DNA of 64,000 nucleotides from Dipteris shenzhenensis (taxonomy: Eukaryota): the NCBI GenBank assembly GCA_047967505.1, contig CM106538.1; one strand, given 5' to 3'. A model generated the notes under the pieces. It worked only from the letters and a program-made list of their open reading frames with translations, made no database searches and was not told where the DNA came from. This document shows positions 1,256 through 52,041 of this stretch, piece by piece. Each line of letters starts with the position of its first letter. Position 1 is the first letter of the stretch. The translations under genes were made by a program, and so were the position numbers.

Positions 1256-2942
1256 CATTCCCCTCCACTCCCTAGCCTACCCAACCCTCTGCCGTACGGA
1301 CGTACGTCGAGCTCCGTACGGCCGTACGTCATCCGTACAGTCGTACGGAACGCCGACATTGCACGGGCGGCGGCGCATTGGCGAAGGCGGGCTGCAGGGC
1401 GACAGCGTGGGCGCGGGCGCGGGCTGTGGCGTGGGCACGGGCGGCGACGCGGGTCGCGGGCCTCTTTGCATAGCAGCTGCTAGCTGCAGCTCGAGGCGCC
1501 GCATCAAGCAAGCAGCCAGCAGTTGCTACTAGCTGCTAAGCCTCTCGAGGCGTCGCGCAGCCTACTCCGAGGGCAGCCGTACGGACTGCCGTACAGCTGT
1601 ACGGACGAAGCCGCCACACTTGCAGGGAGTTACATCAGAGCTGTTTTTCGTTTTTTGTGCAGCCGGGAGGTACATTTTTTGTTTTTCGGGATCTGTGTCT
1701 GAAGAAGTTTGTTCTCCTTGGATCTGGCTGTTGCACAAGTACAGCAAGTACGAAAGTACAAAAGTTACATTCTTGTTTGGGGAAGAAAGAGAGGTGAAAC
1801 AGCATTCTGCTCTTCATTCCTCTTGCTTAAGGATCATTTTTCAGTTCACAGAACTGTGTTATCTTGAAAAGTACAGCAAGTACTTTCATTCATCTCATGC
1901 TTGAGGTGAAGAGAACCACAGTGTGTGGTTGATTGCACAGCTATTTTGTTCTGGGAAGGTAATGCCTTGATTTTGCAAGAGGACATATGCTTTTACTGGG
2001 TTTGAATCTCAGTTTACAGGTGAGCAGATCATAGGGCTTTTGCCCGGAAGGTGATGCATTGTATGCCTTGAGGCAGTGTGGTGCCAGAGAGCACACATTT
2101 GTCTTGATTTCCGCAGTGTCGAGGTGACATTTTCTTGCAGGTCACATTTCTTGTGCCACACTCAGAGAACCTCAGTTGAGCCACGCTTGGCCAGGGCGCA
2201 TCGAGTTTACTCGGTCCCTAACTGTCCATCGTTGACAGTGCTCAAAAGGTTCCTCATTGAGTGTTTGTACGTTGGGATCTGTGTATGTCATTTCTACACA
2301 GGGTAGTATATGCATTACACTGGTGGATGTTTTTGTCAGAGAGATTTTCATATTGCATGCTACCTCAGTGTTGAGGTGTTCTCCACTTGATTCAGGTGTC
2401 AGATCAAGGGGCTTTTGCCCAGACTTTGTTTGACAGTACTTGGGTTACCGACAGAGATCTTCAGATGCATTTTCTCCCCTTGGTATAAGGGTGATTGCTT
2501 GGGATTTATCCCATTTACTGTTGCAGGTTTTGTGACAGGCTGAAGTGTCATTTTTTTTTGGGTGTTTGCCAAGTGGTTTCTGCAATTTAACTCAGTGCAA
2601 TACCTCATCTGAGGTGGGAGAAGTGATCAGTACAGTCAGTACAGCAGTGTTTACAGCAGTGTTTGTGGTTTGTCAGATGATTATGCACTGTTAAGCACTT
2701 GTTGAGCAGCTGCAGCAGTCTGAAATTATTGTTTTTTTTATGCCTCTTTGAGCACAGTACAGTGTGTCAGAAGGTACAGTATTTGCAGGGTCATTTACTG
2801 TTTTGCTGCAGATTTTCCTGACAGTAAAAACAGCACCATTGAGAGTGCTTCTGGCTCTTGAATAGAGCAGGTTTTTCTGAGAAATCAGAATTTTTATTCA
2901 GTCTTTTTACTTCCAGGGAGTCAGGTACTTTCCTCATCTGAT

Positions 2943-18890: not shown

Positions 18891-18921
<31 letters not shown>

Positions 18922-18948
18922 GATATGATGTGATATGACTGTATTAAA

Positions 18949-20457: not shown

Positions 20458-23176
20458 TGTTGGGGTAAAGGCACATTGCCACCCCTTTATTAAAGATATG
20501 ACACCTATGACTGTCTTAAGACAGTCATAGGGTGAAAAACCTAATCCTAATAAAACCTATGAGTTTGTGGTGTGGCTCATCACTTCACACCCGCATCTTT
20601 TGTGTCACCTCTCTCTCTCACTCTCTCCCCGTTGTACTTCTCCCTCACTCTTTCCCTCTCAACTGGTATCAGAGCCAGCCTCACTTCCTCCCTACCCCTG
20701 CCTACCTCTCCCTCTACCCCCCTCGGGACTCGTGCCCTTGGCATTGTGCAAGCAGCTCGGGCTACAGCGGGATAGCGAGGGCAGCAGCGCGGGCTACAGC
20801 GGGGCAGCGCGGGACAGCAACGCGGGGCAACGAGGGCATAGCGCGGGCAGCTGCAGCGGCAGTGCAGGGCATCAGCGCGGGTTGCAGCGGGGTAGCGCGG
20901 GCAGTAGCAAGGGCGCAGCGCGGGCTGCAGCAGGGCGGCGTCGAGCAGCGCCATCAGCAGCTAGCTGCTGCTAGCTCAGGGCCTCGAACAGGGCGGCGCG
21001 TGTACGGACGTACGGCCGTTCGTACCGCCGTACGGACTCCGTACAGGCGTCCGTACTGTACGGACGCTGCCGTACGTACAGGAACCTGCGTCAGAAACTT
21101 TCGTCAGGGAGTAGCATCAGAGAAGGGCATTTCAAAAATTTTTTTTTTCTCTCTCTGTTCTGGGATTTCGTACCCTGCACATGTACACAGGTACAGCAGG
21201 TACAGTGCTGCCAGTACACAGGTACAGCAAGTACAACACTTTTTCTTTGGGGAAAGAAGGCAAAGAGAGAGCATTCCCGGCTGTTCAGTCCTTCAAACTG
21301 TGTTTTTGAGGTACAGCAAGTACACTCTTGTCCCTCGTGCTTGAGGTGACTAGTACCACAGTGTGTGGTGGTTGCACAGTTATCTTGTTTCGGGAAGGTA
21401 ATGCCTTGATTTTGCAGAGGATTTTTTATGCTTTTGCTGAGTGCAAATCTCAGCTTTTGGGTGACATTTTCAAAGGGCTTTTGCCTGGAAGCTTACGCAG
21501 TGTATGCCTTGAGGCAGTGTGGAGCTAGGGAGCCCACATTGGTCTTGTTTCCGCAGTGTATTCAGTGACATTTCTGCAGGTCACATTTTGTGTACGACAC
21601 CTTGGAAAATCTCAGTTGAGCCACGCTTGGCCAGGGCGCATCGAGTTTACTCCCCTAACTGTCCATCGTTGACGGTGCTCAAAAGATTTTCTCTTCAGTG
21701 TTTGTACTTTGGGATCTGTGTTGTTATTGTGTACACAGGGCTGTTTATGCATTGCATTGTCAGGTGAAAGTGCCAGGAGAGCGCTGTATTTTATATGCTA
21801 CCTCAGTGTTGAGGTGTTTTTCACTTGGTACAGGTGTCAAATCAAGGGGCTTTTGCCCAGATTTTGCTTGAGAGCACTTGGGTTACTGTTTGAGACCTTC
21901 AGATGCCTTTTATCCCCTTGGCAGAAGGGTGATTGCTTGGGATTTGTCCCATTTTCTGTTGCAGGTTTGTGACAGGCTGAAGTGTCTGGAGCTTTTTTTT
22001 GGTGAACAAACCAGTGTATGACAAGTGGTTTATGCATATAAAATCAGTGCAATACCTCATCTGAGGTGGGAGAAGTGATCAGGACAGCAGTGTTTTGTGC
22101 TTCGTCAGCTGATGATGCACTGTTAAAGCACTTGTGGAACAGCTGCAGCATTCTGAAATTACTGTTTTATGCCTATTTGAGCACGGTACAGTGTGTCAGA
22201 AGGTACAATAACTGAAGGAAATCTTTTCTGTTTTGCTGCAGATTTTTGACAGTAAAAACAGCACTATTGTGAGTGCTCCTGACTCTTGATAGAGCAGGTT
22301 TTTTCTGAGAAATCAGAATTTTATTCAGTCTCTTTTGACTTACAGGGAGTCAGGTACTTTCCTTATCTAATATGGCATCAGGGGGAAGTGAATCATCAAT
22401 TCTGAACATAAAGAAGTTGGAAGGGGCACACAATTATGCATTATGGGCAGAACAGTGTTTGAATGTACTTCTGCTTAAGAAGATTTCTAAGCCCATAAGG
22501 GTGAAGGGTGGTCAAGCCATCTGGGATGTCAGATGATGAGTGGGAGGAGCTAGATTTGTCCGCGAGGGCTGCTATCATGCTTACTCTCAGTGATTCTCTT
22601 GTGTATAATGTTCAGGCTGAAAAGACCTCTTATGGCGTATGGCAGAGGCTAGCAGAGTTGTATGCCCAGAAGAGTTCAGCTAGTAAGGTGTACTGGTTGA
22701 AGAAGCTGGTTGATCTTCGCATGAAGGAAGGTACAGCTATGACCTCACACTTGAGTGAGTTCAATGCCATCTTTACACAGCTGATTGCACAGGGGTTGAA
22801 CCTTGATGAGGAGTTCAAGGCTACTTTCTTGTTGTGTACCCTCCCTGAGAGTTGGGACACTTTCAAGACCACCCTGTCTAATTCAAATGTCACTCTTATA
22901 TATGCTGATGTAGAGAGCTCTCTCCTCATGGAGGAGATGAGCAGGAAGAATAATGCGGGTAGCAAGTCTTCAAATGCTTTGCAGGTACAGGAAAGAGGCA
23001 GGACTCAGCAAAAGGGTTACTAATTAGCAACACAAGAAATTTTCTATTGTCGGTAGACTGAGGATTTTTTTCATGTGCTAGGACTAGTACTTTAGACCAC
23101 ACTGCACACATGGCACAATCATTGTTTCAGAACTACAATAAGCATGGTGGTTGTTATTCCAACCGCTAGGCTTAGA

Positions 23177-27000: not shown

Positions 27001-28389
27001 CATGCGGATTACTCGTGACAGGTCCAAGGGACTTTTGTTTCTGTCACAGAAGGAGTACATTGACAAAGTACTGCAGAGGTTTAAAATGGAGGGGGGGAAG
27101 TCTATTAGTACCCCGTTGCGTCCACATTTAAAACTCAGCAGTAAGGACAGCCCCAGATCAGATGATGATAAGGCTGAAATGGCCAAGGTTCCGTATGCAT
27201 CTGCAGTTGGTTCTTTGATGTATGCCATGGTTGCCACTCGTCCGGATATTGCTTTTGCAGTGGGAGTCATCAGCAGGTATATGGCAAATCCAGGCAAGCG
27301 GCACTGGGAAGCAGTGAAAGGTGTCTTGAGGTATCTCAAAGGTACCAAAGACTTGTGCATATGCTATGGTAGGCAGGATGCATTGGTGCATGGTTTTACA
27401 GATTCAGACTATGCAGGGAATGCAGAGAACCGGAAGTCTACTACCGGTTATGCTATATCATGGGTGTCTCGGTTGCAGAAATGCGTTGCACTGTCAACCA
27501 CTGAAGCTGAATATGTTGCAGCCACTGAGGCTTGCAAGGAAGCAATATGGCTTACTCGGCTGGTGGGAGATTTGGGCATTACAGGAGATATGCCAGTTCT
27601 GCATTGTGATAGTTAGAGTGCTATCATGTTGGCAAACAATCCGGTCTTTCATCAGAAGACCAAGCACATAGATGTGAAATATCATTTCATCAGGGAGGTA
27701 CTAGAAGACAAGCGACTTGAGCTTGTGAAGGTGCATACTGATGATAATCCTGCAGATTTGCTCACTAAGAGCTTGCCTACAGAGCGGTTTGCACATTGCC
27801 GCCACATCATGGGATTAGGATGAGACCATTCTTATTTTATGGTCTTGTATACAGTAACTGTATATTGCTGTAATTTTTATTCTTTTCTCCCCTTTAGGCA
27901 CATTGGCCTTTAGGTGGGAGGTTGTTGGGGTAAAGGCACATTGCCACCCCTTTATTAAAGATATGACACCTATGACTGTCTTAAGACAGTCATAGGGTGA
28001 AAAACCTAATCCTAATAAAACCTATGAGTTTGTGGTGTGGCTCATCACTTCACACCCGCATCTTTTGTGTCACCTCTCTCTCTCACTCTCTCCCCGTTGT
28101 ACTTCTCCCTCACTCTTTCCCTCTGAACTACTTGTTATTCCTATTTTACGTTTTATAAATTGGTTTCTGAAAGATCAATGTGCTTTATGCTCACCGTTTC
28201 TAACTGTATGGGTATGGTTTAGAAGGATTTCAGCGTTGTTGTATATGAGAGCTTCTAAACATTGGGCAGGTTATGAGATACTGCATGGGATTTCCGCTAA
28301 GGAAGTTGTTTTTTAGCAAATACAAGCTGCACATGAGTTATGCCTTGGTTTCAATCTGCTGTTGGTAATAGCTGCGAATGGTTTTGCAG

Positions 28390-29105: not shown

Positions 29106-30788
29106 GTAAGTTTGTTGACACTAAGCTCCAGATGTAGCAAGGCAAGTTTTTTAAAAGTTAGTCAGGATACTGCAGGAATCAAGCTTTTGTATGCGAGTGT
29201 TCATATGGGGGGGATATTGAACATGCATTTGGGAAGCCCGCTTTTTTTTGGGATGGGCAGTGCTAGCATGGTGGGGTATTGGATTAGTAAATGATTTGAT
29301 GCTAAGGCTTTTCTTTGACACTAGAAAGGCAGGGAGGGGATTGGAGTCACAATTGATTTTTTTGAGCATTGCTATGAGTATGAACTATCAATCATGAGTT
29401 GATCAGGGAGCTACTTTTACCATGAGTAGGTAGAATTTATGGATTGATGGAAAGGTGGTGTTACCATTTCTGGAATTATCATTTTACTTGCAGTGTATGC
29501 TGAGTTGTGAAATCTGCTTCTCTGGCTGGCCGGGAATTTCCTTTGCAGCCACTATCTTTCTTACACTTCCCTTGGCTGCAAGTACGGTATTAACTTGTCG
29601 GTCCCTTGCGATGAGACTTAACCTCTTTAGCTTTCCAACAGAGGGTATGCACAGCGGAAGACTGATAGTAATGCCCAGGAGCTCACACAGTGTGATGTGG
29701 GGTGTGGAATCACAAACTTCTTAACTTATGTGCATAGATGTGCAAGCCAGTAAATAGACAATGCTCAGAGACAAATATAGAAGAAACACTTTATATTTCT
29801 GTCCGTCCAGAAACTAGGACAGGATACAATACCAGAAGGTCCTTCTACCACAAGCCTGACACTTCTAGATCTCTGAGCCTGCGTGCTCCACCTCGAGCAT
29901 ATGTAGACTCTCTGTCTAGATCCCTTCCATCTTGCTGTCCGGAAGCCAGGTGGGCTGCCTCTCTAGCTCAGTCTGCAGCTTCTCCTAGGTCACCTTGTCC
30001 TCCTGGATGTAGGCCTAAGGCTCCCCCTTTGCTGCTCCTGTCTGCTGTCCTGAGGGCTGCTCCAAGTGATGAATGAATGAGGCCCAATGGCCTCCTTATA
30101 TAGGCCCCAAGGGGCTGGAAAAAACCGATCTGGTAGGGGAATATGGGCCGACCAGACTGCCCCTCCCTACCCGACTTTATAGTCTGTAAACCGACCTCCA
30201 GGCAGCCCTTGATTGGCCGACCTAGGGCGGCTCTCTTGGGCTTTTGCCAGGCCCTAAGGGCAGCCCATATAGGGCCCTACCCTTGGGTCCTTCTAGGGCT
30301 GGATGGCTGCAACTGTTCCGCCATCAACAGACCCTTCTTGCAGGCGCCCTTGCCCTGCCATGCTGTGCCATGTGCTCCTGCCCTCTGCCAGGCTCTCTCC
30401 AGCCACGTGTGCAGCGCTGTACAGGTCTGTACATCAGCTGACGTCAGTGCGCCCTTCACAGGGTCCTGTTGCAGGCCGTACGCCTGTCTTTTTGCTTTGA
30501 CAGCTGCGCACATGGCAGCTCATGTGCTGCCCATGTGACATCCCCAATATCTCCAGGTCTACCTCCCCCATGCTCTCCTCATATGGGGGCTTACAGACGG
30601 GGAGGTGACCATTCCAACACCCCCTCTCACCGACACATCCAGGCCCAATGCCAACACGTTGATGACGATGCTCCATTAACTCCCTGGTCGTAGTCCTCTG
30701 GAAAATTTCGATGTCAAAATCTTTTCGTGGCTTTTCATCCAATGGCTCCTGCTGCACTAGGTCCTGGTCCCGCTTCCGCACACCATCC

Positions 30789-33700
30789 TGAAGGTTATAG
30801 AGAGAATGAGAGCAAGAGAGTGTGAGAGAGTCGTAAGCTAGGAAGCAGTAGTTGCTCAATAGAGTGTGTAAAGAGTACAACACAAAGTAGTGTAGATAAG
30901 GTTTTGTCATAGTGACAAAACCTTAGTAGTCACTAACCATAGTTAGTGAACTAACTGCAGTTAGGGGGAAAAACCTCTAAAGGAGGGAAAAGTGCCCCTA
31001 ACTAACTTATTATATTACATTGGTCACTGCTGAATTTTAGATATAATTCCAACAGGTTATAGAGAGAATGAGAGCAAGAGAGTGTGAGAGAGTCGTAAGC
31101 TAGGAAGCAGTAGTTGCTCAATAGAGTGTGTAAAGAGTACAACACAAAGTAGTGTAGATAAGGTTTTGTCATAGTGACAAAACCTTAGTAGTCACTAACC
31201 ATAGTTAGTGAACTAACTGCAGTTAGGGGAAAAAACCTCTAAAGGAGGGAAAAGTGCCCCTAACTAACTTATTATATTACATTGGTCACTGCTGAATTAT
31301 AGATATAATTCCAACACCCCCCTGCAGTGCCAATGTCATGTACAAGGCTGATCAATCACCAAATGGATATAAGTTCAGGGCACTGCGAAATGCCTCGAAC
31401 TTCTCACGTGGTAGTGCCTTGGTGAAGATATCTGCAACGTTGTCATGTGTGGACACAAAGATCATACTGATCTCTCCTGCATGTAACTTCTCTCTGACGT
31501 AATGATAGTGAACCTCAATGTGCTTCGTGCGAGCATGAAACACTGGATTTTTTGCCACTGCAATGGCACTCTGACTATCAGTGAGAATTGGAGAAGGACC
31601 CTCCAAAGACAGATAAAGATCAGCAAATAAACGTCTCAGCCAGACACATTCCACTGTTGCTGTGAAAGCTGCCCTGTACTCAGCTTCACATGATGAGGTA
31701 GCCACTGTAGATTGTTTCTTGCTTAGCCATGAAATGCAAGATTTTCCCAAAAAGAAACAATTGCCACTAGTGGACTGCCTAGTGTCATAATCACCAGCCC
31801 AATCTGAATCACTGTAGGCATGCATCTGCAAGTCACCCCCCCTGGGAAATAGTAAGCCAAAAGACTTGGTGCCTTGCAAATAACGGAAGATGCGCTTAAC
31901 TGCCTGCCAATGCATAGTTTTAGGGCTGTGCATATACCTGCTCACCTGAGATACTGCAAACTGAATATCAGGCCTAGTATTGCAGAGATATATGAGGCAT
32001 CCAACAGCTTGACTGTAAAGTGTGGCATCAACTGATTCTCCTGCATCATGCATTGTGAGTTTCAGCCCCGGTTCCATAGGAGTAGATATGGGCTTACACT
32101 CTTGCATGTTAAATCTGTCCAAAAGTTTCTGAACATACTTGGACTGAGACATAACAGTGCCACGTTTCTCATGAGAGAACTGGATCCCCAAATAAAAATG
32201 AAGCAGCCCCAAATCTGACATATCAAAGTGGGTCTGCAAATCAGTTTTGAAATCTGCAATTTTGTCGTCGTTGGACCCTGTGAGCAATAAGTCATCAACA
32301 TAAAGAAGGATGACTAATATTTCCCCCCCATCCATCTTGATGTAGAGGGTGCTCTCAGTAGGACTATTGTGCAGCCCCTTGCTGGTCAAAAAGGCATGTA
32401 TCTTGGCATACCATGCACGAGGGGCCTGTTTCAGCCCATATAAAGCTTTATTAAGCTTGCAGACTTGAAGTGCATTTGCTGTAATTTCAAAACCCGGAGG
32501 TGGTTTGACATACACCTCTTCCAGCAAGTCCCCATTTAAGAAGGCTGTTTTGATGTCCAACTGATGAACATTCCACTCTAAATGTGCAGCCATTGCAATT
32601 AGTGATCGGATGGTGGTCATCCGGGATGTAGGAGCAAAAGTCTCCTCATAATCGATGCCCTTTTTCTGAGCATAGCCTTTAGCAACCAGCCTGGCTTTAT
32701 ATCTGTCAATGGAGCCATCTGGCTTCCGTTTGACTTTAAATACCCATCGTGTGCCAATAGCATGTTTACCCTGTGGCAAGTCCACAACATCCCAAGTCTG
32801 ATTTTTGGCAATGGACTGCAACTCATCGTGCATGGCATTCATCCAATGCACATTACCTTGGGCCTCTTCAAATGTGGCAGGCTCCTCTTCATCAAGGAGA
32901 GTACCTGCATATGCTGATTCCACTGAATTAGCACCTTCCATGTGCCTTGCTGCACTGCGAGTCCTGCCAGGTAACGGGGCATCAAGTTTACTCTCCCGGA
33001 GAGTCTGTAACAGCCAGTTTGGGACTGTTTTTGCTGCATGTATGTCTGCAATTTCTTGCTGTACCACTTGTTCCACTTCCTGTGGAGGAGGCATGACATC
33101 CCGTGGCGGAACTGAAGCATTTGAAGGTTGCTGGAAATTCTGATTTGGATCAGAAAAATCAGCAGGGGAACCCAATGCAATGGGTAGCAACCCTTGAAAT
33201 ACATCTTCTGAAGGTGAAGGCATTTGAAAATCAGCCTGAGTGTAAGCTGAATTTTCAGAAAATATCACATCTCTACTTACAATGATTTTGCGTGTAGCAG
33301 GATTGTAGAGACGATACCCCTTGCTTTCTGCACTGTATCCAACAAATATGCATTTGATGGCTTTATCTGACAATTTGTGCCTAAATTCAACTGGCACATG
33401 TGCATAGGCAAGGCATCCAAAGACTCGGAAGTGATCCACTGAAGGCTTCCTGTCATTCCAGACCTCAAAAGGAGTTTTTGTTTTTAAAGCCTTAGTGGGA
33501 GCCCTGTTCAAAATGTAATTGGCACACATCAAACCCTCTAACCAGAATTTATGAGGCATGTGTTTGCTTTTCAGCATACATCTGTCCATCTCCATGAGGG
33601 TTCTATTTTTCCTCTCAGCTTTGCCATTTTGCTGAGGGGTCAGCTTGACTGTGAGCTGATGCACAATACCCTTTTGTTTGAGGAAAGCATCAAATTCTGC

Positions 33701-36700
33701 AGATAGGTATTCCCCACCTCTATCCGTGCGTAATGTCTGTATCTTGAGCCCGGTTTCATTTTCAACCATGGCTGAAAAATGTTTAAACACTGTGAACACT
33801 TCAGATTTCTTTTTCAGCCCATAAACCCAAGTAAAATTGGAGTAGTCATCAATGAATGTAACAAAGTAGAGATGACCACCCAATGACGGAGTCCTCATGG
33901 GACCACAGACATCACTGTGTATAAGCTGCAATTTGCGAACAGCTTTAACTGAACCATCCTTCTTGAAGGGAAATCTATGCATTTTACCTAAAATGCACCC
34001 TTCACAGGCATGTGGAGGAGGTATCTCAAGAGGTGGCAATGCATCAACCATTGAAAATTTCTGAAGTGTCATCAAGCTGTTGTAATGCATGTGGCCATAT
34101 CTGGCATGCCATAATTCTGCATTTTGCATGGCAACTGTAGGGGAAGAAATTGCCAAAGCATGAGCTGCTCTTTTCTGAAAAATATCAAGCTGAAAAAGCC
34201 CACGCAGCAGAGTACCAGATAACATTAAGGCATAGTTAGCTTCCCTGTCCCGGACAGCACATTTGTCATCCTCAAAGATGACCTGAAATCCATCTCTGTT
34301 AAGAGTGGACACTGAAAGGAGATTTTTGGTTATGCCAGGCACATATAAAACATCAGAAAGTCTGAAAATTGAGCCATCAATTGCAGTGAGCTCAACTTCT
34401 CCTGTGCCACGTACTGAATATGAGGAGTTGTTGGCACAAGTGACTTTCTTACCAACAGGGGGTGGATGCAAGGAAGTAAAGAGACACTTCCTCGAAGTGA
34501 TGTGCTTGGATGCACCGCTGTCAAAATACCATGTGTTCAGTGTTTCATCAACACTGAAAGCAGATGCATCTGAAGGAGAGTCAAAACTGCAAGTCAAAAA
34601 TGCATATGTATCATCACTGAATGAAGCTGTACTATCCCGAGCATCTGGAACAGCCAACCTAGAATCAGAAATGCAAGATAAAAAGGCATAATCTTGACCA
34701 ACAAAGTTGGCTGCAGCATCCCCACTGTCAGATGCACAAGGGGCTGAATCTGAAACAGCCATTCCTGAGCTGTTTTTCTTTTCCTTTGCAATCCTTTTCC
34801 TGCATTCTGCTATGTGATGACCTGGCTTTTTGCAGTAGTGACAAAAACCCTTCTTTTTGGGCTTGCTTGTATCACTTTTAGCCTTTTGTGAAGGCTGTCC
34901 TGACCCACTGGAAGGCTGATTTGCTGCTGTTTTTGCCTGTCCCTTTGTTTTTGATTTGAATTTTGAGAGCATGGCTTGTTCACCTGCTCGTGAAGCCAAA
35001 TTTTTCCTGGTCTGCTCTTCCTGAAGCAGAAGTCCTATCAGCTCATGAAAAGAAAGAGGATTTGCACCCCCCCTCAATGATAAATTCAGCGAAGTATGAA
35101 AGCTGAGATAAGACTCAGGAAGAGAATTCAGAGTGGTTGTAATCATCTCTGAATCAGGAATAATTTCATCTATATTTAACAACTGCTCTCTGAGATCCTG
35201 TAGCTTAGTGAGGTGGGCTGACATGGAGTCACCCTCCTCCATATGTGTATTGCTCAATTCTCTTTTTAAAAAAGATACTCTGGCATCATTCCGTGCTGCA
35301 TACATGCTTTCCAAAATATCCCACGCTGCCCTGGAGGTCTTACACGACCGGATATGCGGAATGATTGATCTTTTCACTGAAAGAGAGATGCAAGACAAGG
35401 CTAAGGCATCTCGTGAATCCCATCTCTTTTGCTCAGGAGTATTAACTGTAGCTGCACCAACAACTTGTCCTGCAGCTGCACCTTGTGTACGACCTCTTCC
35501 ACCTCCTTGGTGAGGAGGGGTAGCAGGTGCAATATCTGCTGGTCGGATTTCATCCCCATTGACATAATCCCATAAATTGCGAGAAATCAGAATATTACGT
35601 ACCATGAAACTCCAGAGGGAGTAGTTGGTACCATCCAATTTGTCTTCCTGAGAAAGACCACCGAACTGAAAATCATTCTGATTTTGATGGGCCATATCTG
35701 AAAAAGGAATTGAAGCAGATACAAAGTTGAATTCCCTTACTGGGAATAGAATGCACAACTCCCAAAAACCACACCCAAGCACGGGCTGTATATGCAACTT
35801 AGATTTCTGCACTTGAGCTGTCAGAAATCTGTCCAAGCATAAAACACTCTCCAAAATTTGCCAAAAGTGTTCCAAACACTCCAATAAAGGCAGTATGTAC
35901 TAAATACTCCAAAAAATGCTCTCTCAACTCAAAAGCCCCAATTTGTGGCTAGAAATTGCAGCCAGAAAGGGGCAAAATTACTAAAAGCCCCAAATCTGCA
36001 ATTTTTGAACAAAAGCCCCAAATTTCAGACTAGATCTGCAGATCTGTCTGTAAAAGCCCCAAATGTACTCCCAGAAAATAACTGCCCCAATTTGTGGTTT
36101 CCTGCAAGATGAGCCTGTCCAAAAACACCTGTGGCTTAAGGCAACTGGTGTCGATCTGCAAGTACAGATTGTACAGCTGACAGAAGCAAGGACTGTACGG
36201 TCAGTACGAACTGTACGGTCAGTACGGAACAGACCGTACGGTACTGATGACGCAGGTACAGTCGAAAAGCAAAACTGTACGGAAGCAGGATGGCGATGAT
36301 GTACGGCGAAAATTGTACGGACGGCGGAACCTGCACGGCGTACGGCAAAATCTGTACGGACGGCGAAAACTGTACGGACAGCGGAATTCGTACGGCGTAC
36401 GGCGAAATCCGTACGGACTGTACGGCGAAATCCGTACGGACTGTACGGCGATGGTACGTCGGATTCCGTACAGTCGTACGGACTGTACGGACGAGTTGTA
36501 GCAGGGAGAGAACGTTGAGGGAGCTGGTGGCCCGAGGGTCTTGAACCCGCTCTGATACCAAATGAAGGTTATAGAGAGAATGAGAGCAAGAGAGTGTGAG
36601 AGAGTCGTAAGCTAGGAAGCAGTAGTTGCTCAATAGAGTGTGTAAAGAGTACAACACAAAGTAGTGTAGATAAGGTTTTGTCATAGTGACAAAACCTTAG

Positions 36701-36828
36701 TAGTCACTAACCATAGTTAGTGAACTAACTGCAGTTAGGGGGAAAAACCTCTAAAGGAGGGAAAAGTGCCCCTAACTAACTTATTATATTACATTGGTCA
36801 CTGCTGAATTATAGATATAATTCCAACA
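30789..36828 (-). mobile_element. Ty1/copia LTR retrotransposon C, intact ORF, with a doubled 3' LTR
   Basis: 266-bp LTRs at 36563-36828 and 30789-31054, plus an extra LTR at 31055-31316. TSD CATCC at 30784-30788 and 36829-36833. PBS reverse complement at 36549-36560. Confidence 0.96.
31352..35695 (-). CDS. Copia C gag-pol polyprotein, about 1,447 aa, uninterrupted
   Basis: First ATG of the ORF at 35695 (MAHQNQNDF). Motifs: KLDGTNY, CHYCKKPGHHIAEC, WYFDSGAS, LWHARYGH, LIHSDVCGP, TDRGGEY, LYVDDLL, YSDSDWAG, ADIFTKAL. Confidence 0.93.
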   Translation of the reverse strand: MAHQNQNDFQFGGLSQEDKLDGTNYSLWSFMVRNILISRNLWDYVNGDEIRPADIAPATPPHQGGGRGRTQGAAAGQVVGAATVNTPEQKRWDSRDALALSCISLSVKRSIIPHIRSCKTSRAAWDILESMYAARNDARVSFLKRELSNTHMEEGDSMSAHLTKLQDLREQLLNIDEIIPDSEMITTTLNSLPESYLSFHTSLNLSLRGGANPLSFHELIGLLLQEEQTRKNLASRAGEQAMLSKFKSKTKGQAKTAANQPSSGSGQPSQKAKSDTSKPKKKGFCHYCKKPGHHIAECRKRIAKEKKNSSGMAVSDSAPCASDSGDAAANFVGQDYAFLSCISDSRLAVPDARDSTASFSDDTYAFLTCSFDSPSDASAFSVDETLNTWYFDSGASKHITSRKCLFTSLHPPPVGKKVTCANNSSYSVRGTGEVELTAIDGSIFRLSDVLYVPGITKNLLSVSTLNRDGFQVIFEDDKCAVRDREANYALMLSGTLLRGLFQLDIFQKRAAHALAISSPTVAMQNAELWHARYGHMHYNSLMTLQKFSMVDALPPLEIPPPHACEGCILGKMHRFPFKKDGSVKAVRKLQLIHSDVCGPMRTPSLGGHLYFVTFIDDYSNFTWVYGLKKKSEVFTVFKHFSAMVENETGLKIQTLRTDRGGEYLSAEFDAFLKQKGIVHQLTVKLTPQQNGKAERKNRTLMEMDRCMLKSKHMPHKFWLEGLMCANYILNRAPTKALKTKTPFEVWNDRKPSVDHFRVFGCLAYAHVPVEFRHKLSDKAIKCIFVGYSAESKGYRLYNPATRKIIVSRDVIFSENSAYTQADFQMPSPSEDVFQGLLPIALGSPADFSDPNQNFQQPSNASVPPRDVMPPPQEVEQVVQQEIADIHAAKTVPNWLLQTLRESKLDAPLPGRTRSAARHMEGANSVESAYAGTLLDEEEPATFEEAQGNVHWMNAMHDELQSIAKNQTWDVVDLPQGKHAIGTRWVFKVKRKPDGSIDRYKARLVAKGYAQKKGIDYEETFAPTSRMTTIRSLIAMAAHLEWNVHQLDIKTAFLNGDLLEEVYVKPPPGFEITANALQVCKLNKALYGLKQAPRAWYAKIHAFLTSKGLHNSPTESTLYIKMDGGEILVILLYVDDLLLTGSNDDKIADFKTDLQTHFDMSDLGLLHFYLGIQFSHEKRGTVMSQSKYVQKLLDRFNMQECKPISTPMEPGLKLTMHDAGESVDATLYSQAVGCLIYLCNTRPDIQFAVSQVSRYMHSPKTMHWQAVKRIFRYLQGTKSFGLLFPRGGDLQMHAYSDSDWAGDYDTRQSTSGNCFFLGKSCISWLSKKQSTVATSSCEAEYRAAFTATVECVWLRRLFADLYLSLEGPSPILTDSQSAIAVAKNPVFHARTKHIEVHYHYVREKLHAGEISMIFVSTHDNVADIFTKALPREKFEAFRSALNLYPFGD

Positions 36829-39800
36829 CATCCTGGTACACAGGTCCATCTCTGGTAGCACCTCCTGGCACCACCATCTTCAGTCACGTTCCTACCTTTG
36901 AACTTGAGCAATCCAGCAGTCACGATCTTCCAGTTGTCCCCCTCATAATGAGTGAACAACCTGGAGTCTTCGAGGCACTATGCTTTGATGGTCTGTTTCA
37001 ACCCGTCCTTCCTTTGGCAAGATCTGCAACCAATGAATATTTCCAAATAACCTGGACCATGATCTCTCGCTGAGTTCTCAAGCAGGTACTCTTTTGGCTT
37101 CAGTACTCTTTGTCCATCACCTTCTAGCAATCTGCGTCCGAGATTTGAAGAAGCACCAATACTTCCCCTTCTGCCTTCGAAGAAGACCAATTCCTTCCAA
37201 TCTCGTATCTCTTGAGAAAAATGAAGAGCAGAGTCTCTCCACAGCATGCTATAAAGGCTCAAATGCAAAATATCAAGTACATACCAAACTGTGGTACTGC
37301 CTGTGTGTTTGCTCTGAAAGCAAACCCTGTACCTCATCAAGGCACCCACTAAGAGTTTGTGTAATCCTATACTGTCCCCTTCTGAAGTACAGCATCCATC
37401 TGACCATGAGACCCCAGGGCCCTCCATGGAATCCACCCTCTTGTTAGTGTCAATAGCCATGCACCTGGAAGGTACCAAGCGCTCCATGCTGTCCTTCACC
37501 TTCACAAAGGCATCTGACTCCTCATCGACCCACATCTCTATGTCAGACATCCTCACTGTGATTTCTTGGTTAACATATCTGACCTCGGTAACACTCGGTG
37601 ATGTCACTAGGAACAACTCTTTGATTACCACATTTGCTTTAGCCTCTCCCTCTGAATCTGAGTCGGACCCCCTTTTTGTTTTTCCGATCCGCCTTTTTCT
37701 TTCTGCAGTCCTTTGCAAAATGTCTTGGCGTATCACAGTAGAAGCACTACTTCTTCTGCTTCCTCTTCGAAGTCTCCTCGTCGTCAGAGTCGTCTTTCTT
37801 GGACTTGTCACCGTTAGGCTTGCTCTTTCCTTTGCCAGCGTAATCCTTCGCCAGCATTGCCTTGTTGTCTTTGTCGTCGTTGTAGAGCTTCTCCCGAGCT
37901 TCCTCCTGTAGCAGTAATGGACCCAACTCCTCAAACGTTAGAGGTTTGGTCCTCTGTCTTGCTGTCACGGTCGTAACAAAGCTCTTGAAACTCCGAGGTA
38001 GCCTCTTCAGTACCATCAAGGCCAAATGGCATGAGTCCACCTTTTGACCAAACAACTGCCGCCAGTTGATCCCTCACCACCTTGACCTTCGTCAAGTGGC
38101 TATGTACCGTATCTCCTTCTTCCATATCAAGATTGTAGAGTTGATGCTGAAGAAGGAAAATCCAGGAGGTGTTGTCTGTATAGATCCTTCAGAGTGACCC
38201 ACGCCTCTACTGACGTCTCGGTCATTTGGATATGTGGAAGAACAGAGTCTGCCGTAGTCCCTATGATTAATGCCAAGGCATGGGCATCTCTATCTTCCCA
38301 AGCTTTGAGCTCCTTTCTGTCTACTGCCGTGACTATCTTCCCTTGCTTGTCCACCATGTCCTCCGGCTTCGCCTCCATTCCCGTTGTCAATTTCCACAAC
38401 TTCCAAGCTACTAAATGGCTCCAAATTTTCACCTTCCAGATCGGGTAGTTGGGCCCGTCTAGTTTCCCAGACTCTCCGAAGTTAGGGATAGTGAATGAGA
38501 GAAAACTGGGGGAGGAGGAAGGGAGAGCAGGGGTTGAAGAGGCTATAGAGGTCGACATCTTTGCTGTTATATCACACAGCAAAGTCAACCAAACTCAATT
38601 TTTAGTAGACCAAAACTCTGAATGCACTTGACTGAACCTGAGTCACCTTCCTTCTCACAAGGGCACAATTCTCCAGTCGTGGAAGTCAATTCCCAAGAGC
38701 GTCTGAATTAGGGTCGTCCTTCAGCAAGGTCCCTGCCTTCAGGCTCCCACACCTGTGAGCGTCCTATTTGGGCTCTGATACCATGTTAGAAATGACCCAA
38801 CAGAGGGTACGCAAAGCGGAAGACTGATAGTAATGCCCAGGAGCTCACACAGTGTGATGTGGGGTCTGGAATCACAAACTTCTTAACTTAGGTGCATAGA
38901 TGTGCAAGCGAGTAAATAGACAATGCTCAGAGACAAATATAGAAGCAACACTTTATATTTCCGTCCGTCCAGAAACTAGGACAGGATACAATACCAAAAG
39001 GTCCTTCTACCACAAGCCTGACACTTCTAGATCTCTGAGCCTGTGTGCTCCACCTCAAGCATATGTAGACTCTCTTTGTCTAGATCCCTTCCACCTTGCT
39101 GTCCGGAAGCTAGGTGGGCTGCCTCTCTAGCTCAGTCTGCAGCTTCTCCTAGGTCACCTTGTCCTCTTGAATGTAGGCCTAAGGCTCCCCCTTTTCTGCT
39201 CCTGTCTGCTGACATGAGGGCTGCTCCAAGTGATGAATGAATGAGGCCCAATGGCCTCTTTATATAGGCCCCAAGGGGCTGGCAAAAACCGACCTGTTAG
39301 GGGAATGTGGGCCGACCAGACTGCCCCTCCCTACCCGACTTTATAGTCTGTAAACCGACCTCCAGGCAGCCCTTGATTGGCCGACCTAGGGCGGCTCTCT
39401 TAGGCTTTTGCCAGGCCCTAAGGGCAGCCCATATAGGGCCCTACCCTTGGGTCCTTCTAGGGCTGGATGGCTGCAACTGTTCCGCCATCAACAGACCCTT
39501 CTTGCAGGCGCCCTTGCCCTGCCATGCTGTGCCATGTGCTCCTGCCCTCTGCCAGGCTCTCTCCAGCCACATGTGCAGCGCTGTACAGGTCTGTACATCA
39601 GCTGACATCAGCGCGCCCTTCACAGGGCCCTGTTGCAGGCCGTACGCCCGTCTTTTTGCTTTGACAGCTGCTCACATGGCAGCTCATGTGCTGCCCATGT
39701 GACATCCCCAATATCTCCAGGTCTACGTCCCCCATGCTCTCCTCGTATGGGGGCTTACAGATGGGGAGGTGACCATTCCAACACCTTTGTGCCTTTTGAT

Positions 39801-48184: not shown

Positions 48185-50048
48185 GAGCAATATAGAGATC
48201 TAATAGTAGCCAGAGAGGCCCCTTAGGGGTGGTTGGGTTACTTGGGTGTCTAGTCCTAGGCTCTCCGCTTACGACACTCTCTTCAAGAGCAAGAGAGAGC
48301 ACAGAGACGGGATCTGGCCTCTGTAGAGCGACTCTCTGGGGTAGGATCCAACCTCACAGCTGCTTGCAGACTGGTATGAGAGTGTAAGGCTCGATCTCCA
48401 GCCACTTAGATCCATCTAGCTAAGTTCTCTTCTCGGGCACGGTGGGTATAACAAGGAGACAAGATGACTAGGCAGCTCTTCTAGACCACGGGCCTAGCTT
48501 AGCAGGGACAGCTTTAGCAACTACAAGATGAGATTGGAAGCACTCAACCCATAGGAGATCCTAGAGATGAGGAGCTTTGGAAGGGCCTCAAGGTCTTCCC
48601 ACCTCAAAAGTGTTGTGGGGAGGATGGATCTACACCATCTTTCTTTGAGTGCTTTTGGGAGCACAACCCCTGTGGTTGTCCTTTTAGGAGATTTTCAACT
48701 TCGGCTCTCTCCCTCATCCTTTTGTTGTGGTTGGATTTGTTTGATCCAGGGGAACGGGATAGTTCTTGTTAGCACTTAGCCCTGGTATGGCCTTGTACGC
48801 TAGTTAGGACTAGTCCCAGTGAATTAGTTGACTTTGGGCCATATATTGGCCACTCTTGTACTTTCTTCATTATCCATTTGCATGTACTTTCGGTTCCTTC
48901 AGCTGTAGTCTTGCTCTCTTGCATTTTGTTGCTCCCACACCGAATAGTAGTATCAGAGTAGTTTGGTCTGGATCCATCTTGCTCCCCTTGCTTACACTTT
49001 TAGGTCGACCTGTTCATCTCAGCTTAGCTTGCATTTGAGCAGCTCCAGCCTCATTGCACTCGCGTCAAGTCTCAACGCTGATTGCAACAGTTGCAATCAG
49101 GTGCTTCATCAACATTGGCTGGGCTAGCTACAATCGGTTGTTTCATTGGACAAGCCCCCGTCTGTAAATGCAACTGCACTGCAATCTGTCCATATAGGCG
49201 TTTCCATCCGTACAACATATAGGAGCTTCCATTCGTACAACTTTGTGTCGTACAACTTTACATCAGCTACTTGTACAGCGTGGATTTCGTCCATATAATC
49301 GTTCACAGCATGGATTTTGTCCATACAGTTGCGTCATCCATACATCTATCCTGCAAATTAGTTCGTATAGTGCTGGTACTCGTTGTCGTACGCCACTTTT
49401 GCAAATTTGTCTGTATACTGCCGTACAATTTATGTTTGTACCTTTCGTGCTGTTTGCTGATTGTACAATAAGTTGCCATGTAGGCACATTGCAGACAGAC
49501 TGCAGAAGCAAATCTTCAGACATTTTCTGTACATTACCTGAAACAACTTTGTAGACAAATTTGGGGCTTTTCTTGATATTGCCCTCTTTTTGGCTCAATT
49601 TTGCTCTACGAATTGGGACTTTTGGCATTGGGCTACAATTTTTCAAAGAACAATGTGTTTGGCATTGCAAGCAATTTTCCACTTAGTGTGAGAGAGATTT
49701 GCAGACATTTGCTACTTTTAGCAGTCTGATTTGGCAGATTTTGGAGCTTTTTGAGGCCAATAACAGTTTATTATAGGGATTGCATGCTGGTACAGTGACA
49801 TTGAGCAGAATTTTGAATTTGCTCTCTTTTATGGCATACTCTCTCTCTCTCTCTCTCACACACAAAGAAAAACAGATAACACACACACACACTTTAAAAA
49901 AATAAAAATAAAAAAATAGTGAAATCTTTATATTTCTGTGTGGGAAACCCAAAAGAGGTAAAAACCCACCAATAAGTACAAGGAAAAAGTTTTTACAAGT
50001 AAAACCTCAGAGAAAAAGTCATGAGGTAGCCAAGTAAAATATTACATA

Positions 50049-51968
50049 TCAAGCTGGAGGAGAATCAAACACAGCATCCTCCAGCTTCAAATTGTTGCTC
50101 TGTAAAAACTGATGCAGTGATGAAACCACACCATCAATAAAAACAAGCTGTTTTTTGCCCTTATGATTCTTCTTGATATAGGCTGGTACCAGAAATTTTT
50201 GAATCAAAGGGTCAAAAACCTGTTGTAACATGGGATGGAAAGATTCCAATAAAAAAGGTACTTGTGCATCCCTGACAGAAGTAAACTCTGGCACAGGCAT
50301 TAAAGGCATAGGAGCTAGCTCAACATCCGTGTCTTCCGATGAAGAAGCTACATATGATGAAATAGGGTTCTGCATTTGAGCTTCATTCGGAGGATCAATC
50401 TGAATAAAAGCAGGGGCGGTATCCTGAAAGATAGCATGCATATCATCCTGTAATTTGCCCTCTGCAAGGGTTACATCCATATCCTGAATAGAAGGAAACT
50501 GATGGTGCTTAACAAGAGTGCAATCCTGGGCTTCTTCAGCAAGAGGAAGATTTGCCTGTGATTTATCAACCTTCCTCCAGTAGTGCTTCGGAGCAGTAGA
50601 GGACTTCACCAAAGAAGCCATAGCAGAAACCGGAGAAGAAGGGAGAGTAACCTTGACAGCTGAAGGAGGAGCAGGTGGTATGGGCCTGGATATGGAAGGG
50701 CAAGCACGTGCAAAATGGCCAACCTGTTGGCACCGATAACATGGAGTGGGGAAAGATGCAAAATGGAGCTTGATGCGCATCGGATGAGCAAATCCCAGAT
50801 CAAGATCCAGCGTAGATAGCACGGCCTGCGTCATATCCCACAGAATGCAAAGACGAACATCACGGGAGGCTTGCAAGAACTCCTGTCTCGGAATATGGAG
50901 AGGCCTTCCCAAAAAAGGTGCAAGAGTTGGAAGATGCTGAAAAAGAGGTACAGGCAGCGCTTTGAGAGTAATCCAAACCGGACAGTGAGTCAGAAGTGTT
51001 GCAGAAGGATCGAAAAGTGGATCCCAGAGCATAACATAAGCAAAGAAACCCGCTCCAGGAACACCAGCATCATTGACAAGGCGCTCTACCACCTCAATCG
51101 AAGAGCACTGGGCATAGTAAAATCCTTTGCCTAGAAAGACAAAGGAAGAAATACAATCCAGACCCACTGCAACATCAGCCCAATGACGGAGCTGAGCTGA
51201 GGATAAAACCCTGCCCATAAAGTAGAGGCAGACTCCAAATTGTTGAGCCTGTCGAAGACTAGAGACCAAAAGGGCAGAATCCAAGGAGCAAACAAGCGGG
51301 GAACTCGATGAAGGAACTTCTGTGACAGAGGCAGAGCATAATTGGCGAAGAAGATCCAGCTGGAGTGAAGAAGAAGGGCCATCAGAACCCTCCAGCTTTG
51401 CCGATTTGACGAGAGGAGAGGCAGGCAGACCACCATGTTTTCGGCGAAGAAACATACGAGTAGGAGCAGAGGCAAAAGGAAGTGTCGAAGCAGAGAAAAC
51501 AAAAGAGGGAGGTGGTTGCGCAGGGGACTGTACGGGCTGTACGGTCTTCCGTACAGGTTGTACGGTCGATCGTACAGCCTGTACGGAAGGCCGTACAGCA
51601 GGGACGAAAGATTGCACGGGAAGGTCTACAGCGAACGAGGAAAATACGGGAGGTTGTACGGGAGATTGTACAGGTTGTACGGTCGATCGTACAACCTGTA
51701 CAGAAGTCCGTACGGTCGGGACGAAGGATTGTACGGGAGGATCTACAGCGAACGGGGAAAGTATGGGAGGCTGTACGGGAGATTGTACGGGCGGCGGTAC
51801 GGAAGGTAGGCTGAGCAGAGGAGGTACGGAAAGCCGTACAGCTGACGGCAGCTGTACGGAAGACGGATCAGGCAGCAGGGTCGTGGCAGGTAATTGTATG
51901 GACGGGGACTGTACCGACGGAATCAGCGAGGAAGACGAGGCTGGCTGTGCTGAGGAGGAGATCTCCAT
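50049..51968 (-). CDS. LINE ORF1-like protein (DUF4283-like region plus CCHC zinc knuckle), 639 aa, with no ORF2
   Basis: FLGKGFYYAQC...WDPLFDP...PVWITLKALP...LGRPL...VRLCI...CYRCQQVGHFARAC matches the layout of plant L1 ORF1. The N-terminus is P/V/S/Q-rich with two 39-aa repeats. Confidence 0.82.
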   Translation of the reverse strand: MEISSSAQPASSSSLIPSVQSPSIQLPATTLLPDPSSVQLPSAVRLSVPPLLSLPSVPPPVQSPVQPPILSPFAVDPPVQSFVPTVRTSVQVVRSTVQPVQSPVQPPVFSSFAVDLPVQSFVPAVRPSVQAVRSTVQPVRKTVQPVQSPAQPPPSFVFSASTLPFASAPTRMFLRRKHGGLPASPLVKSAKLEGSDGPSSSLQLDLLRQLCSASVTEVPSSSSPLVCSLDSALLVSSLRQAQQFGVCLYFMGRVLSSAQLRHWADVAVGLDCISSFVFLGKGFYYAQCSSIEVVERLVNDAGVPGAGFFAYVMLWDPLFDPSATLLTHCPVWITLKALPVPLFQHLPTLAPFLGRPLHIPRQEFLQASRDVRLCILWDMTQAVLSTLDLDLGFAHPMRIKLHFASFPTPCYRCQQVGHFARACPSISRPIPPAPPSAVKVTLPSSPVSAMASLVKSSTAPKHYWRKVDKSQANLPLAEEAQDCTLVKHHQFPSIQDMDVTLAEGKLQDDMHAIFQDTAPAFIQIDPPNEAQMQNPISSYVASSSEDTDVELAPMPLMPVPEFTSVRDAQVPFLLESFHPMLQQVFDPLIQKFLVPAYIKKNHKGKKQLVFIDGVVSSLHQFLQSNNLKLEDAVFDSPPA

Positions 51969-51989
51969 CGCTCACGTACCTAGAAAACT

Positions 51990-51991
<2 letters not shown>

Positions 51992-52037: not shown

Positions 52038-52041
<4 letters not shown>

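Follow-up and report, generated by a model that had tools for sequence, protein, structure and literature searches.

Retroelements and GTAC arrays of the window

The window (the whole 64,000-nt stretch of DNA that was analysed) contains copia elements A to E, an old copia (F), a gypsy element and a LINE-ORF1-like insertion. Arrays of GTAC sites lie in the leaders of copia A, B, C and F and at the 5′ end of the LINE-like insertion (Table 1). The carrier copia have LTRs of only 205–266 bp and leaders of 853–1690 nt. In control copia with a PBS just upstream (n = 5), 42–153 nt separate the PBS from the point where the gag match starts.

Table 1. Array-bearing elements of the window: positions, strands and characteristics of their features
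Feature	Position	Strand	Characteristics
Copia A array 1	1294..1346	+	6 GTAC sites, CCGTACGG type; starts ~40 nt past PBS; CpG o/e 1.91
Copia A array 2	1579..1602	+	3 GTAC sites; includes perfect 16-bp palindrome CCGTACAGCTGTACGG
Copia A looser sites	1739..1883	+	5 sites, (A/G)GTACA(G/A) type, without CpG flank
Copia B array	21002..21079	+	9 GTAC sites; GTACGG on at least one side in 7/9
Copia B second array	21170..21234	+	7 sites, GGTACAG type, without CpG flank
Copia C Gag-Pol	31352..35695	-	Intact, 1447 aa: gag, protease, integrase, RVT_2; CpG o/e 0.26
Copia C second leader repeat	35930..36095	-	Five copies of a TTGGGGC-containing word
Copia C leader, GTAC array	36162..36490	-	25 GTAC cores; CpG o/e 1.78
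Copia C PBS	36549..36560	-	TGGTATCAGAGC on the element's strand; array begins 59 nt downstream
Copia C 5′ LTR	36563..36828	-	266 nt; 100% identity with 30789-31054
Old copia F leader, decayed array	49207..49470	+	9 GTAC (49210-49466) plus CATAC, GTAT and ATAC variants
LINE-like open frame	50049..51968	-	639 aa; DUF4283 and CCHC zinc knuckle
LINE-ORF1-like 5′ array	51530..51979	-	22 GTAC; 16/22 with GTACGG on one or both sides; CpG o/e 1.26

Copia C is an intact, very young Ty1/copia element of the minus strand with a leader of 853 nt. Its PBS is presumably the copia initiator-tRNA type. TATA-like words lie close to the 5′ end of the LTR, so U3 is probably very short. The initial annotation had placed about 25 GTAC sites in about 330 bp just downstream of this PBS; recounting gives exactly 25 in 329 bp, and the 59-nt gap on the element's strand agrees with that placement. 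GTACGG is present on at least one side of 19 of the 25 cores (22 instances), full CCGTACGG in only three. The sense-strand consensus of the array is CCGTACAG. The second leader repeat is homologous to the leader of the old copia at 49556-49624.

Of the sequencing runs X1 to X4, whose contigs were compared with 31000-37000, X1 yields 506 copia C family pieces; depth is almost zero in the bins of 36025-36627, which, these being contigs, is uninformative on the array. X1 shares 15% of the sampled words, the best value of the runs listed, none of which is an RNA run. One of the closest relatives of copia C in metagenome contigs has a leader of only ~110 nt from which the array is absent. A second has a flank of 236 bp, too short to span the array position.

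Copia A and B belong to one family (gag 93% identical). Array 1 of copia A is missing from the aligned place in copia B. Array 2 of copia A aligns with the first array of copia B, and the looser sites of copia A with the second, with the conserved word GTACAGCAAGTAC. The clusters originally listed for both elements are recovered: six GTAC in 1294-1346 and 15 in 1294-1883 of copia A, nine and seven in the two arrays of copia B. Those of the old copia (nine sites) and of the LINE-like 5′ end (22, as against an estimate of about 22) are likewise present. The two exact TNCGTACAA matches assigned to the old copia, at 49207 and 49232, are found, and a third lies at 36313 on the minus strand. The window thus holds three matches against 0.66 expected; since 3 of 100 shuffles also reach three, this 9-mer is not significant alone.

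The LINE-like insertion (49867-51988) carries its array in the first ~460 nt, including a 117-bp unit that is repeated twice. The open frame starts at the first ATG, and its first ~150 codons run through the array. Its product is of ORF1 type, with DUF4283 (E = 2.3e-07), presumably a mark of plant LINE ORF1, and zf-CCHC (E = 3.7e-06). A domain scan of the frames of the insertion gives no reverse transcriptase or endonuclease. At the 3′ end a T-rich stretch precedes (TG)n, and poly(A) is absent. The word CTCTCACACACA, present at both ends, may be a target-site duplication but lies within microsatellite sequence. From the former designation as an ORF1-only LINE the ORF1-type protein is retained; the element is better described as an insertion of 2.1 kb whose only encoded product is a DUF4283 and zinc-knuckle protein, with the array inside the open frame. 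The open frame across the arrays was rejected as evidence of coding: several frames are open on both strands, and nearly all six are open over the arrays because the repeats contain no stop codons.

Motif composition, CpG content and lineages

GTAC occurs 264 times in the window, against 248 expected from mononucleotides and 129 from dinucleotide shuffling (observed about twofold). Over 330 bp, the maximum in the dinucleotide-shuffled window (n = 100) averages 4.3 sites, with a top value of 7. The copia C interval shuffled itself (n = 500, dinucleotide-preserving) gives a mean of 5.8 and a maximum of 11. The repeated word extends beyond GTAC to CCGTAC(A/G), complementary to GTACGG, with 60 occurrences where 2.75 are expected and the highest shuffle reaches 7; 56 of the 60 are inside the five arrays, and the remaining four are at chance level. 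In copia loci of other organisms (78 loci, 551,357 bp) there are no GTAC clusters, against nine in the window, and none of 33 control copia leaders is enriched. The dyad CGTAC-N2-7-GTACG is present 12 times in the window and absent from the control copia loci.

Sites are mostly one-sided. GTACGG on a single side is found in 16/25 cores of copia C, 15/22 of the LINE-like array, 5/9 of copia A and 6/9 of copia B, and the consensus of all 42 such sites is again that of the copia C array. Such one-sidedness is more in keeping with an asymmetric reader that binds as a monomer than with a hairpin. The sense to antisense ratio of CCGTACR is 17:4 in copia C, 11:4 in the LINE-like array, 2:0 in F, 6:5 in A and 3:4 in B. 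The same 7-mer heads the word lists of the copia C and LINE-like arrays, with 10 sense-strand copies in each; the spacers differ. Tandem-repeat periods are 9–23, 57 and 117 bp, and sites are in part 8–9 bp apart. Site copies were made by tandem duplication, so that site counts are not counts of independent events.

Arrays are absent from copia D, copia E and the gypsy element of the window. Other, unrelated tandem repeats occur in leaders: a GCGCGGGC-type repeat in A and B, and an 18-mer and an 11-mer in E. A cluster of six GTAC at 40581-40651 was set apart (TGGTACA type, without CpG flank, in no recognised leader).

With CpG o/e values of 1.78, 1.91, 1.26 and 1.10 (range 1.1–1.9), the arrays form CpG islands in a window of o/e 0.42, and the coding parts of the carrier elements are CpG-depleted (0.26–0.37). 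CpG-decay forms that preserve the core (TGTAC/GTACA) are far more numerous than those that destroy it (CATAC/GTATG), with ratios of 7:0 (A), 13:0 (B), 15:0 (C), 20:2 (LINE-like array) and 9:2 (old copia). The two copies of the 117-bp repeat in the LINE-like array differ by 20 mismatches, one of which lies within the 28 core positions (4.8 expected; p = 0.04). Because the sites counted are tandem-duplication copies, this asymmetry between core and flank may partly reflect recent amplification.

The carriers had been called unrelated retroelements. There are several of them, and one is not a copia; the five arrays nevertheless reduce to three lineages (A/B; C with the old copia; the LINE-ORF1-like insertion). 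The leaders of C and the old copia are 78.6% identical over 70 nt and have the same order, the second repeat coming after an array, despite a gag identity of only 40%. The earlier statement that A/B, C and the LINE share no other leader similarity is correct in that only the motif and the dyad spacing are common to all three; it does not extend to the LINE-like and copia C arrays, which are 77–80% similar over 45–48 nt, sense to sense. Because of this similarity, capture and convergence are not distinguishable, and three fully independent origins are not established.

Candidate functions of the arrays

The arrays have the SBP/SPL-type core with its flank (GTACGG, CCGTAC(A/G) or TNCGTACAA). The SBP element is given as TNCGTACAA with the core GTAC (PMC10796333). 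GTACGG is the top DAP-seq and ChIP-seq motif of tomato SlSPL-CNR (PMC13458263); the array word is its complement, which bears out the initial reading of GTAC/CCGTAC as an SBP-type site. Because the motif matches this plant SPL binding site, the arrays are plausibly docking platforms through which the timing of the elements' activity is controlled. The proposed platform consists of homotypic clusters of one-sided GTACGG in the transcribed 5′ region. A host GTAC-binding factor would dock there, SBP/SPL proteins being the most plausible. In the short-LTR copia the array would serve as a downstream enhancer, in the LINE-like element as an internal promoter. The platform would be methylation-gated, because each site contains CpG and the tomato SPL binds only unmethylated GTACGG, its binding being abolished by CpG methylation (PMC13458263). 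In silenced, methylated copies it would be inert; where methylation is lost it would become active. The reading as methylation-gated SBP/SPL-type site clusters, acting as downstream enhancer or internal promoter, is given a probability of about 40%. What the sequence shows is the motif with its density, position and CpG-island character, and its absence from copia of other organisms; action at the DNA level, an SBP protein as the factor, and activation or repression as the outcome are inferred.

From the SPL interpretation as first put forward, the SBP-type motif and the position past the PBS or at the 5′ end stand, and the ties to miR156 and copper stay hypothetical; the carrier classes are revised to three lineages, one of which is an ORF1-only insertion. 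SPL docking is favoured by the recurrence of the longer word, the one-sided cores, the CpG islands, the excess of core-preserving decay forms, the position in long leaders of short-LTR copia or at the LINE-like 5′ end, and the lack of clusters and dyads in the control copia. Points against it are the GGTACAG type of the second array in A and in B, which lacks a GG/CC flank; the sites 8–9 bp apart, which may not all be occupiable together; the folding of the arrays as RNA, far better than in shuffles and at the expected place of retroelement RNA signals; and the elements without arrays (copia D, E and gypsy). A wider proposal is that LTR and non-LTR elements built or traded SPL docking arrays past their start sites and so form a regulon that needs both a demethylated copy and SPL activity (developmental phase, gametophyte or sporophyte stage, or copper limitation). 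It would explain the survival of CpG in CpG-eroded elements and is considered unlikely.

If the arrays are SPL-bound, bursts of transposition in a large genome of fern type would be tied to a defined, ancient developmental or copper-sensing pathway. The arrays would be a natural transcription factor platform whose use depends on the transposon's own methylation state, and transposed arrays could place SPL-responsive, methylation-sensitive enhancers beside host genes.

Retroviral packaging and dimerisation signals are located between the PBS and gag. The copia arrays occupy this position. The arrays may form an RNA-level leader signal, with GUAC-rich self-complementary repeats that fold or pair in the genomic RNA, function in its packaging or dimerisation, in nuclear export or in the control of translation, and are perhaps read by the zinc knuckles of Gag or ORF1; this is doubtful. 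The copia C array has a predicted fold at -120.5 kcal/mol against -93.4 in shuffles (z -5.2), the LINE-like array at -129.4 against -84.7 (z -8.6), each better than every shuffle. CCHC knuckles are present in both proteins (Gag and ORF1-like). ATG is depleted in the copia C leader (one, against a shuffle mean of 8.8; 0/500 shuffles as low), so this leader acts like a scanned mRNA leader. The sense-strand motif bias of C, the LINE-like array and F also favours an RNA-level signal, but A and B have no such bias. In copia C the bias also leaves few pairing partners (CGTACA x10, TGTACG x1 on the sense strand), so a design based on hairpins is unbalanced there. Also against an RNA signal, array copy number varies freely between A and B, array 1 of A being missing in B; pairing does not need CpG retention; and no Rfam family is matched in the window at gathering thresholds.

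An origin as neutral or selfish minisatellites, in which a palindromic seed grew by slippage in unconstrained leaders, spread by template switching and has no role, is also improbable. It accords with the tandem periods, with the different copy numbers in the related A and B, with the unrelated tandem repeats in the leaders of A, B and E, and with the sense-to-sense likeness of the LINE-like and copia C arrays, which fits capture. It does not account for the same top 7-mer in these two arrays despite different spacers, for the dyad spacing common to three lineages or for the array and second repeat kept together in C and F at 40% gag identity. Core-destroying variants are absent from the young A, B and C, and CpG is at 1.8 times expectation against 0.26 in the coding DNA of the same lineage.

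Quite unlikely is a Sirevirus-type silencing hotspot, with hairpin-forming palindromic repeats of the regulatory region as preferred templates and targets of small RNAs in a fast-evolving conflict with the host. Palindromic repeated motifs of Sireviruses are CpG islands adjoining the promoter (PMC2829016), and those of maize are hotspots of siRNA matching, hairpin formation and sequence change (PMC4728375). The present arrays are also CpG islands, fold into hairpins and turn over fast between A and B; their motif is, however, mostly one-sided, with a full palindrome in only 3/25 copia C cores, and a hotspot accounts more for a consequence than for the recurrence of one word. This reading is compatible with SPL docking.

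VANDAL21/VANC systems have short motif arrays in non-coding transposon parts. Beyond this likeness nothing supports the VANC-like alternative raised in the initial annotation, taken here as a target array for a sequence-specific anti-silencing protein encoded by the element; it is very improbable, because the carriers encode only Gag-Pol or the ORF1-like protein, and none of 101 further open frames has a suitable domain.

Comparison with known systems

In the literature searched, which covers few subscription journals, no precedent was found for GTAC/SPL sites linked to retroelements or for arrays of 15–25 such sites in leaders. SPL docking arrays would differ from the known SBP/SPL GTAC-box (PMC13458263, PMC10796333) in setting: the sites described in the text available are in gene promoters, with a 65-bp probe of two GTAC motifs. 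GTACGG or CGTACAA, the GTAC core and the methylation-sensitive CpG are alike.

The RM boxes of Sireviruses (PMC2829016, PMC4728375) are similar in being short, symmetric, CpG-containing motifs clustered in 8–32 copies in a regulatory region, in forming a CpG island, in keeping the motif while the flanks diverge, and in similar motifs across families. A high-copy motif in a CpG island is found here as well: the 329 bp of the copia C array hold 25 cores at an o/e of 1.78, and the coding part of the element has 0.26. Unlike the RM signature CGG...CCG, the motif here is CCG-TA-CGG or one-sided CCGTACA. RM boxes are located in U3, where they precede the TATA box, and upstream of env, whereas the present arrays are in the leader, 3′ of the PBS; a domain scan of the carriers, including the 101 further open frames, gave no env-like frame. 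One carrier here is a non-LTR element.

The gypsy insulator has 12 Su(Hw) sites within 340 bp of the gypsy 5′ UTR (PMC2374998). Like the copia C array, it is an array of ~330–340 bp in the 5′ leader of an LTR retroelement, there for a host zinc-finger protein. It differs in belonging to an animal element, in its motif (YRYTGCATAYYY), its factor and its insulator function, and in that binding is demonstrated there and proposed for the present arrays.

Mouse L1 has tandem promoter monomers. Drosophila copia has an activator in the 5′ UTR (PMC2829016). Both resemble the role proposed for the present arrays in having regulatory DNA 3′ of the start site, partly tandem, in a LINE and a short-LTR copia, and differ in motifs and hosts. 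If the arrays are SPL-bound, the control region of short-LTR plant copia would reside in the leader, like that of Drosophila copia and gypsy.

Density and repeat unit of the GTAC arrays

The dense GTAC clusters first observed in retroelement leaders (the stretch between PBS and gag) and at the 5' end of a LINE-like insertion are confirmed. The roughly 25 sites in about 330 bp that the initial annotation placed in the copia C leader are exactly 25 in 329 bp, above every shuffle: the densest 330-bp stretch of the shuffled window averages 4.3 GTAC (maximum 7; 100 dinucleotide-preserving shuffles), and the array itself, shuffled, carries a mean of 5.8 (maximum 11; 500 shuffles). The further clusters reported in copia A, copia B, the old copia (F) and the LINE-like element are all present by count. 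So are the exact copies of TNCGTACAA at 49207 and 49232, with a third at 36313; 0.66 are expected and 3 of 100 shuffles contain at least as many, so three copies are not significant alone.

The repeated unit is GTACGG rather than bare GTAC, which sharpens the GTAC/CCGTAC motif originally proposed. The window has 60 copies of CCGTAC[A/G], against an expectation of 2.75 and no more than 7 in any shuffle; 56 copies lie inside the five arrays and the other 4 are at chance level. GTACGG flanks the GTAC core on one side in 16 of 25 copia C sites, on both sides in 3 and on neither in 6. One-sided cores make up 15/22 in the LINE-like array, 5/9 in copia A and 6/9 in copia B. The consensus of 42 one-sided sites is CCGTACAG. 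On the elements' own strands, CCGTACA is the top 7-mer of the copia C and LINE-like arrays alike (10 copies each). The commonest core-to-core spacings are 8-9, 12 or 14 bp; the dyad CGTAC-N2-7-GTACG is found 12 times in the window.

Carrier elements, controls and origin

Elements were mapped by Pfam scans and LTR alignments. Copia A and B are one family (gag 93% identical). The copia C array starts 59 nt past the PBS, within an 853-nt leader; its polyprotein has its closest named relatives in the fern Adiantum nelumboides (50-66% identity). Gag of copia C and F is 40% identical, and their leaders are homologous (78.6% over 70 nt) in a second, TTGGGGC-type repeat, the sole clear homology between them. 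Because A and B are one family and the C and F leaders are homologous, the five arrays belong to only three lineages: A/B, C/F and that of the LINE-like insertion. Leaders of copia D, copia E and the gypsy element hold 0-2 GTAC and no array. The repeats of the copia E leader are built on other short palindromes (CTGCAG, GAGCTC), GTAC being present only twice. Long leaders with repeats may be a general feature of the short-LTR copia elements of this genome.

Table. Coordinates and properties of features in the window
Feature	Coordinates	Strand	Properties	Basis
Copia A	1040-1244, 7151-7358	+	LTRs ~205 bp	LTR alignment
Copia A array	1294-1346; 1294-1883		6 sites; 15 sites	GTAC count
Copia A second repeat	1387-1461		GCGCGGGC type, CpG-rich tandem, unrelated to array	
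NLE-matching frame	11381-11680	+	Notchless-like domain, E 8e-07; possible fragment of a host-gene exon, amid transposons	
Ty3/gypsy element (5' LTR region)	17440-19831	-	5' LTR region tandemly duplicated; spacings 1090 bp and 1509 bp, segments 100% identical	
Copia B	20458-20664, 27923-28129	+	LTRs 207 bp	LTR alignment
Copia B second repeat	20751-20948		GCGCGGGC type, expanded	
Copia B array	21002-21079; 21170-21234		9 sites; 7 sites	GTAC count
Copia D	29635-39785	-	LTRs 987 bp, 96.8% identical; leader ~200 nt; older, copia C nested inside	
Copia C		-	1447-aa Gag-Pol, stop-free; LTRs 266 bp, 100% identical	Pfam, LTR alignment
Copia C 3' LTR	30789-31316		tandemly duplicated; period 262 nt, 98-100% identity	
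Copia C leader	35696-36548	-		
Copia C TTGGGGC words	35930-36095	-	five	
Copia C array	36162-36490		25 sites	GTAC count
Other GTAC cluster	40581-40651		6 GTAC, TGGTACA type without CpG flank; outside any recognised leader	
Old copia F	near 48948; near 52806	+	PBS-like word; gag	
Copia F array	49210-49466		9 sites	GTAC count
Copia F TTGGGGC repeat	49556-49624, 52441-52456	+	on both sides of LINE-like insertion	
LINE-like insertion		-	2.1 kb, interrupts copia F; sole coding a 639-aa frame (DUF4283, CCHC knuckle); 3' end T-rich then (TG)n, not poly(A)	
LINE-like array	51530-51979		22 sites	GTAC count
LINE-like flanks	49852-49866, 51989-52040		CTCTCACACACA-type microsatellite; may be target-site duplication	
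Copia E		-	LTRs 328 bp; leader ~1100 nt	
Copia E leader repeats	56937-57018, 57584-57623	-	tandem 18-mers and 11-mers	
Low-complexity tract	61560-62024		CTCAC/CCGCT	

Controls were 78 copia-bearing metagenome loci (551,357 bp in total), fetched with a copia polyprotein profile. GTAC clusters (at least 5 sites, gaps of at most 40 bp) number 0 in these loci against 9 in the window. The dyad is absent from all 78, and GTAC is not enriched before gag in the 33 with upstream flank (0-4 sites each). In the five with a PBS close upstream, it lies 42-153 nt from the start of the gag match. L001, a relative of copia C (55% identity) that assembled as a circle, has a leader of ~110 nt without an array. 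Against these controls, array-bearing long leaders are an innovation of local origin, not something shared by copia elements at large.

Leaders had been described as alike in nothing but the motif. Short-word BLAST agrees, giving motif-level matches only (copia A and C, 18 nt in opposite orientation; copia B and C, 34 nt at 88%) and nothing at E < 0.01 between the LINE-like array and other leaders. In a more sensitive search, copia C and the LINE-like array are 77-80% identical over 45-48 nt, sense to sense. This is about the level expected from two arrays with a common 16-of-22-nt dyad unit, so that convergence and template-switching capture are not separable here.

CpG content and possible constraint on the cores

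CpG o/e is 0.42 in the window, 0.26-0.37 in coding parts of elements, and 1.78 (C), 1.91 (A), 1.26 (LINE-like) and 1.10 (F) in the arrays. With TpG+CpA o/e at 1.23, the window has the pattern expected of a heavily methylated genome. Under the null for CpG decay of CGTACG, core-preserving (TGTAC/GTACA) and core-destroying (CATAC/GTATG) products are equally frequent; the ratios found are 7:0 (A), 13:0 (B), 15:0 (C), 20:2 (LINE-like) and 9:2 (F). In a 117-bp repeat pair of the LINE-like array, the 28 core positions take 1 of 20 mismatches (4.8 expected, p = 0.04). GTAC stands opposite GTAC in copia B at 8 of the 15 copia A sites in a manual count, the rest of the leader being poorly conserved; the first copia A array has no counterpart in B. 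Decay ratios, repeat-pair mismatches, CpG retention and the A/B alignment are suggestive of constraint on the cores, the counts being of tandem-duplicated copies and not of independent events. A neutral minisatellite is an unlikely reading.

Possible function and known systems

TNCGTACAA is the target of the SBP domain, and GTAC its indispensable core (PMC10796333). GTACGG is the top motif of tomato SlSPL-CNR in DAP-seq and ChIP-seq, and its binding is abolished by CpG methylation (PMC13458263). The leading reading takes the arrays as DNA sites: putative SBP/SPL-type sites which, gated by methylation, would act as downstream enhancer or internal promoter (probability about 0.4). Points in favour of a role as DNA are the one-sided motif, the very short LTRs and the placement of the LINE-like array. 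TATA-like words lie near the 5' ends of these LTRs, so little U3 would be left for control sequences. In the LINE-like element the array occupies the outermost 5' sequence, which is where an internal promoter has to be.

A leader signal acting as RNA is as unlikely as the minisatellite. In its favour, the folding of the arrays' sense RNA is much stronger than that of shuffled sequence (z -5.2 and -8.6), the arrays occupy positions at which RNA signals of retroelements would be looked for, sense copies of the motif predominate (sense:antisense 17:4 in C, 11:4 in the LINE-like array, 2:0 in F), and the copia C leader has one ATG against 8.8 in dinucleotide shuffles (0/500 as low). The same sense bias leaves few complementary partners for hairpins in copia C (CGTACA 10, TGTACG 1); copia A and B lack strand bias, and pairing does not need CpG retention. 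ATG is also depleted in the A (13 against 22.7) and B (12 against 19.5) leaders, and not in that of E.

A silencing hotspot of the Sirevirus kind is improbable. In Sirevirus copia elements, palindromic CGG...CCG motifs are present in 8-32 copies and make up CpG islands, both in U3 and ahead of env (PMC2829016), and in maize these regions are hairpin-capable siRNA hotspots (PMC4728375); the present arrays differ in both motif signature and position. Targets of an element-encoded, VANC-like anti-silencing protein are very improbable.

In the literature searched, which takes in few subscription journals, nothing was found that describes GTAC/SPL arrays in the leaders of retroelements. The gypsy 5' UTR carries 12 Su(Hw) sites within 340 bp (PMC2374998). 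As read from sequence, the arrays would work like SPL sites, Sirevirus RM boxes and the gypsy Su(Hw) array, while falling under the definition of none of them.
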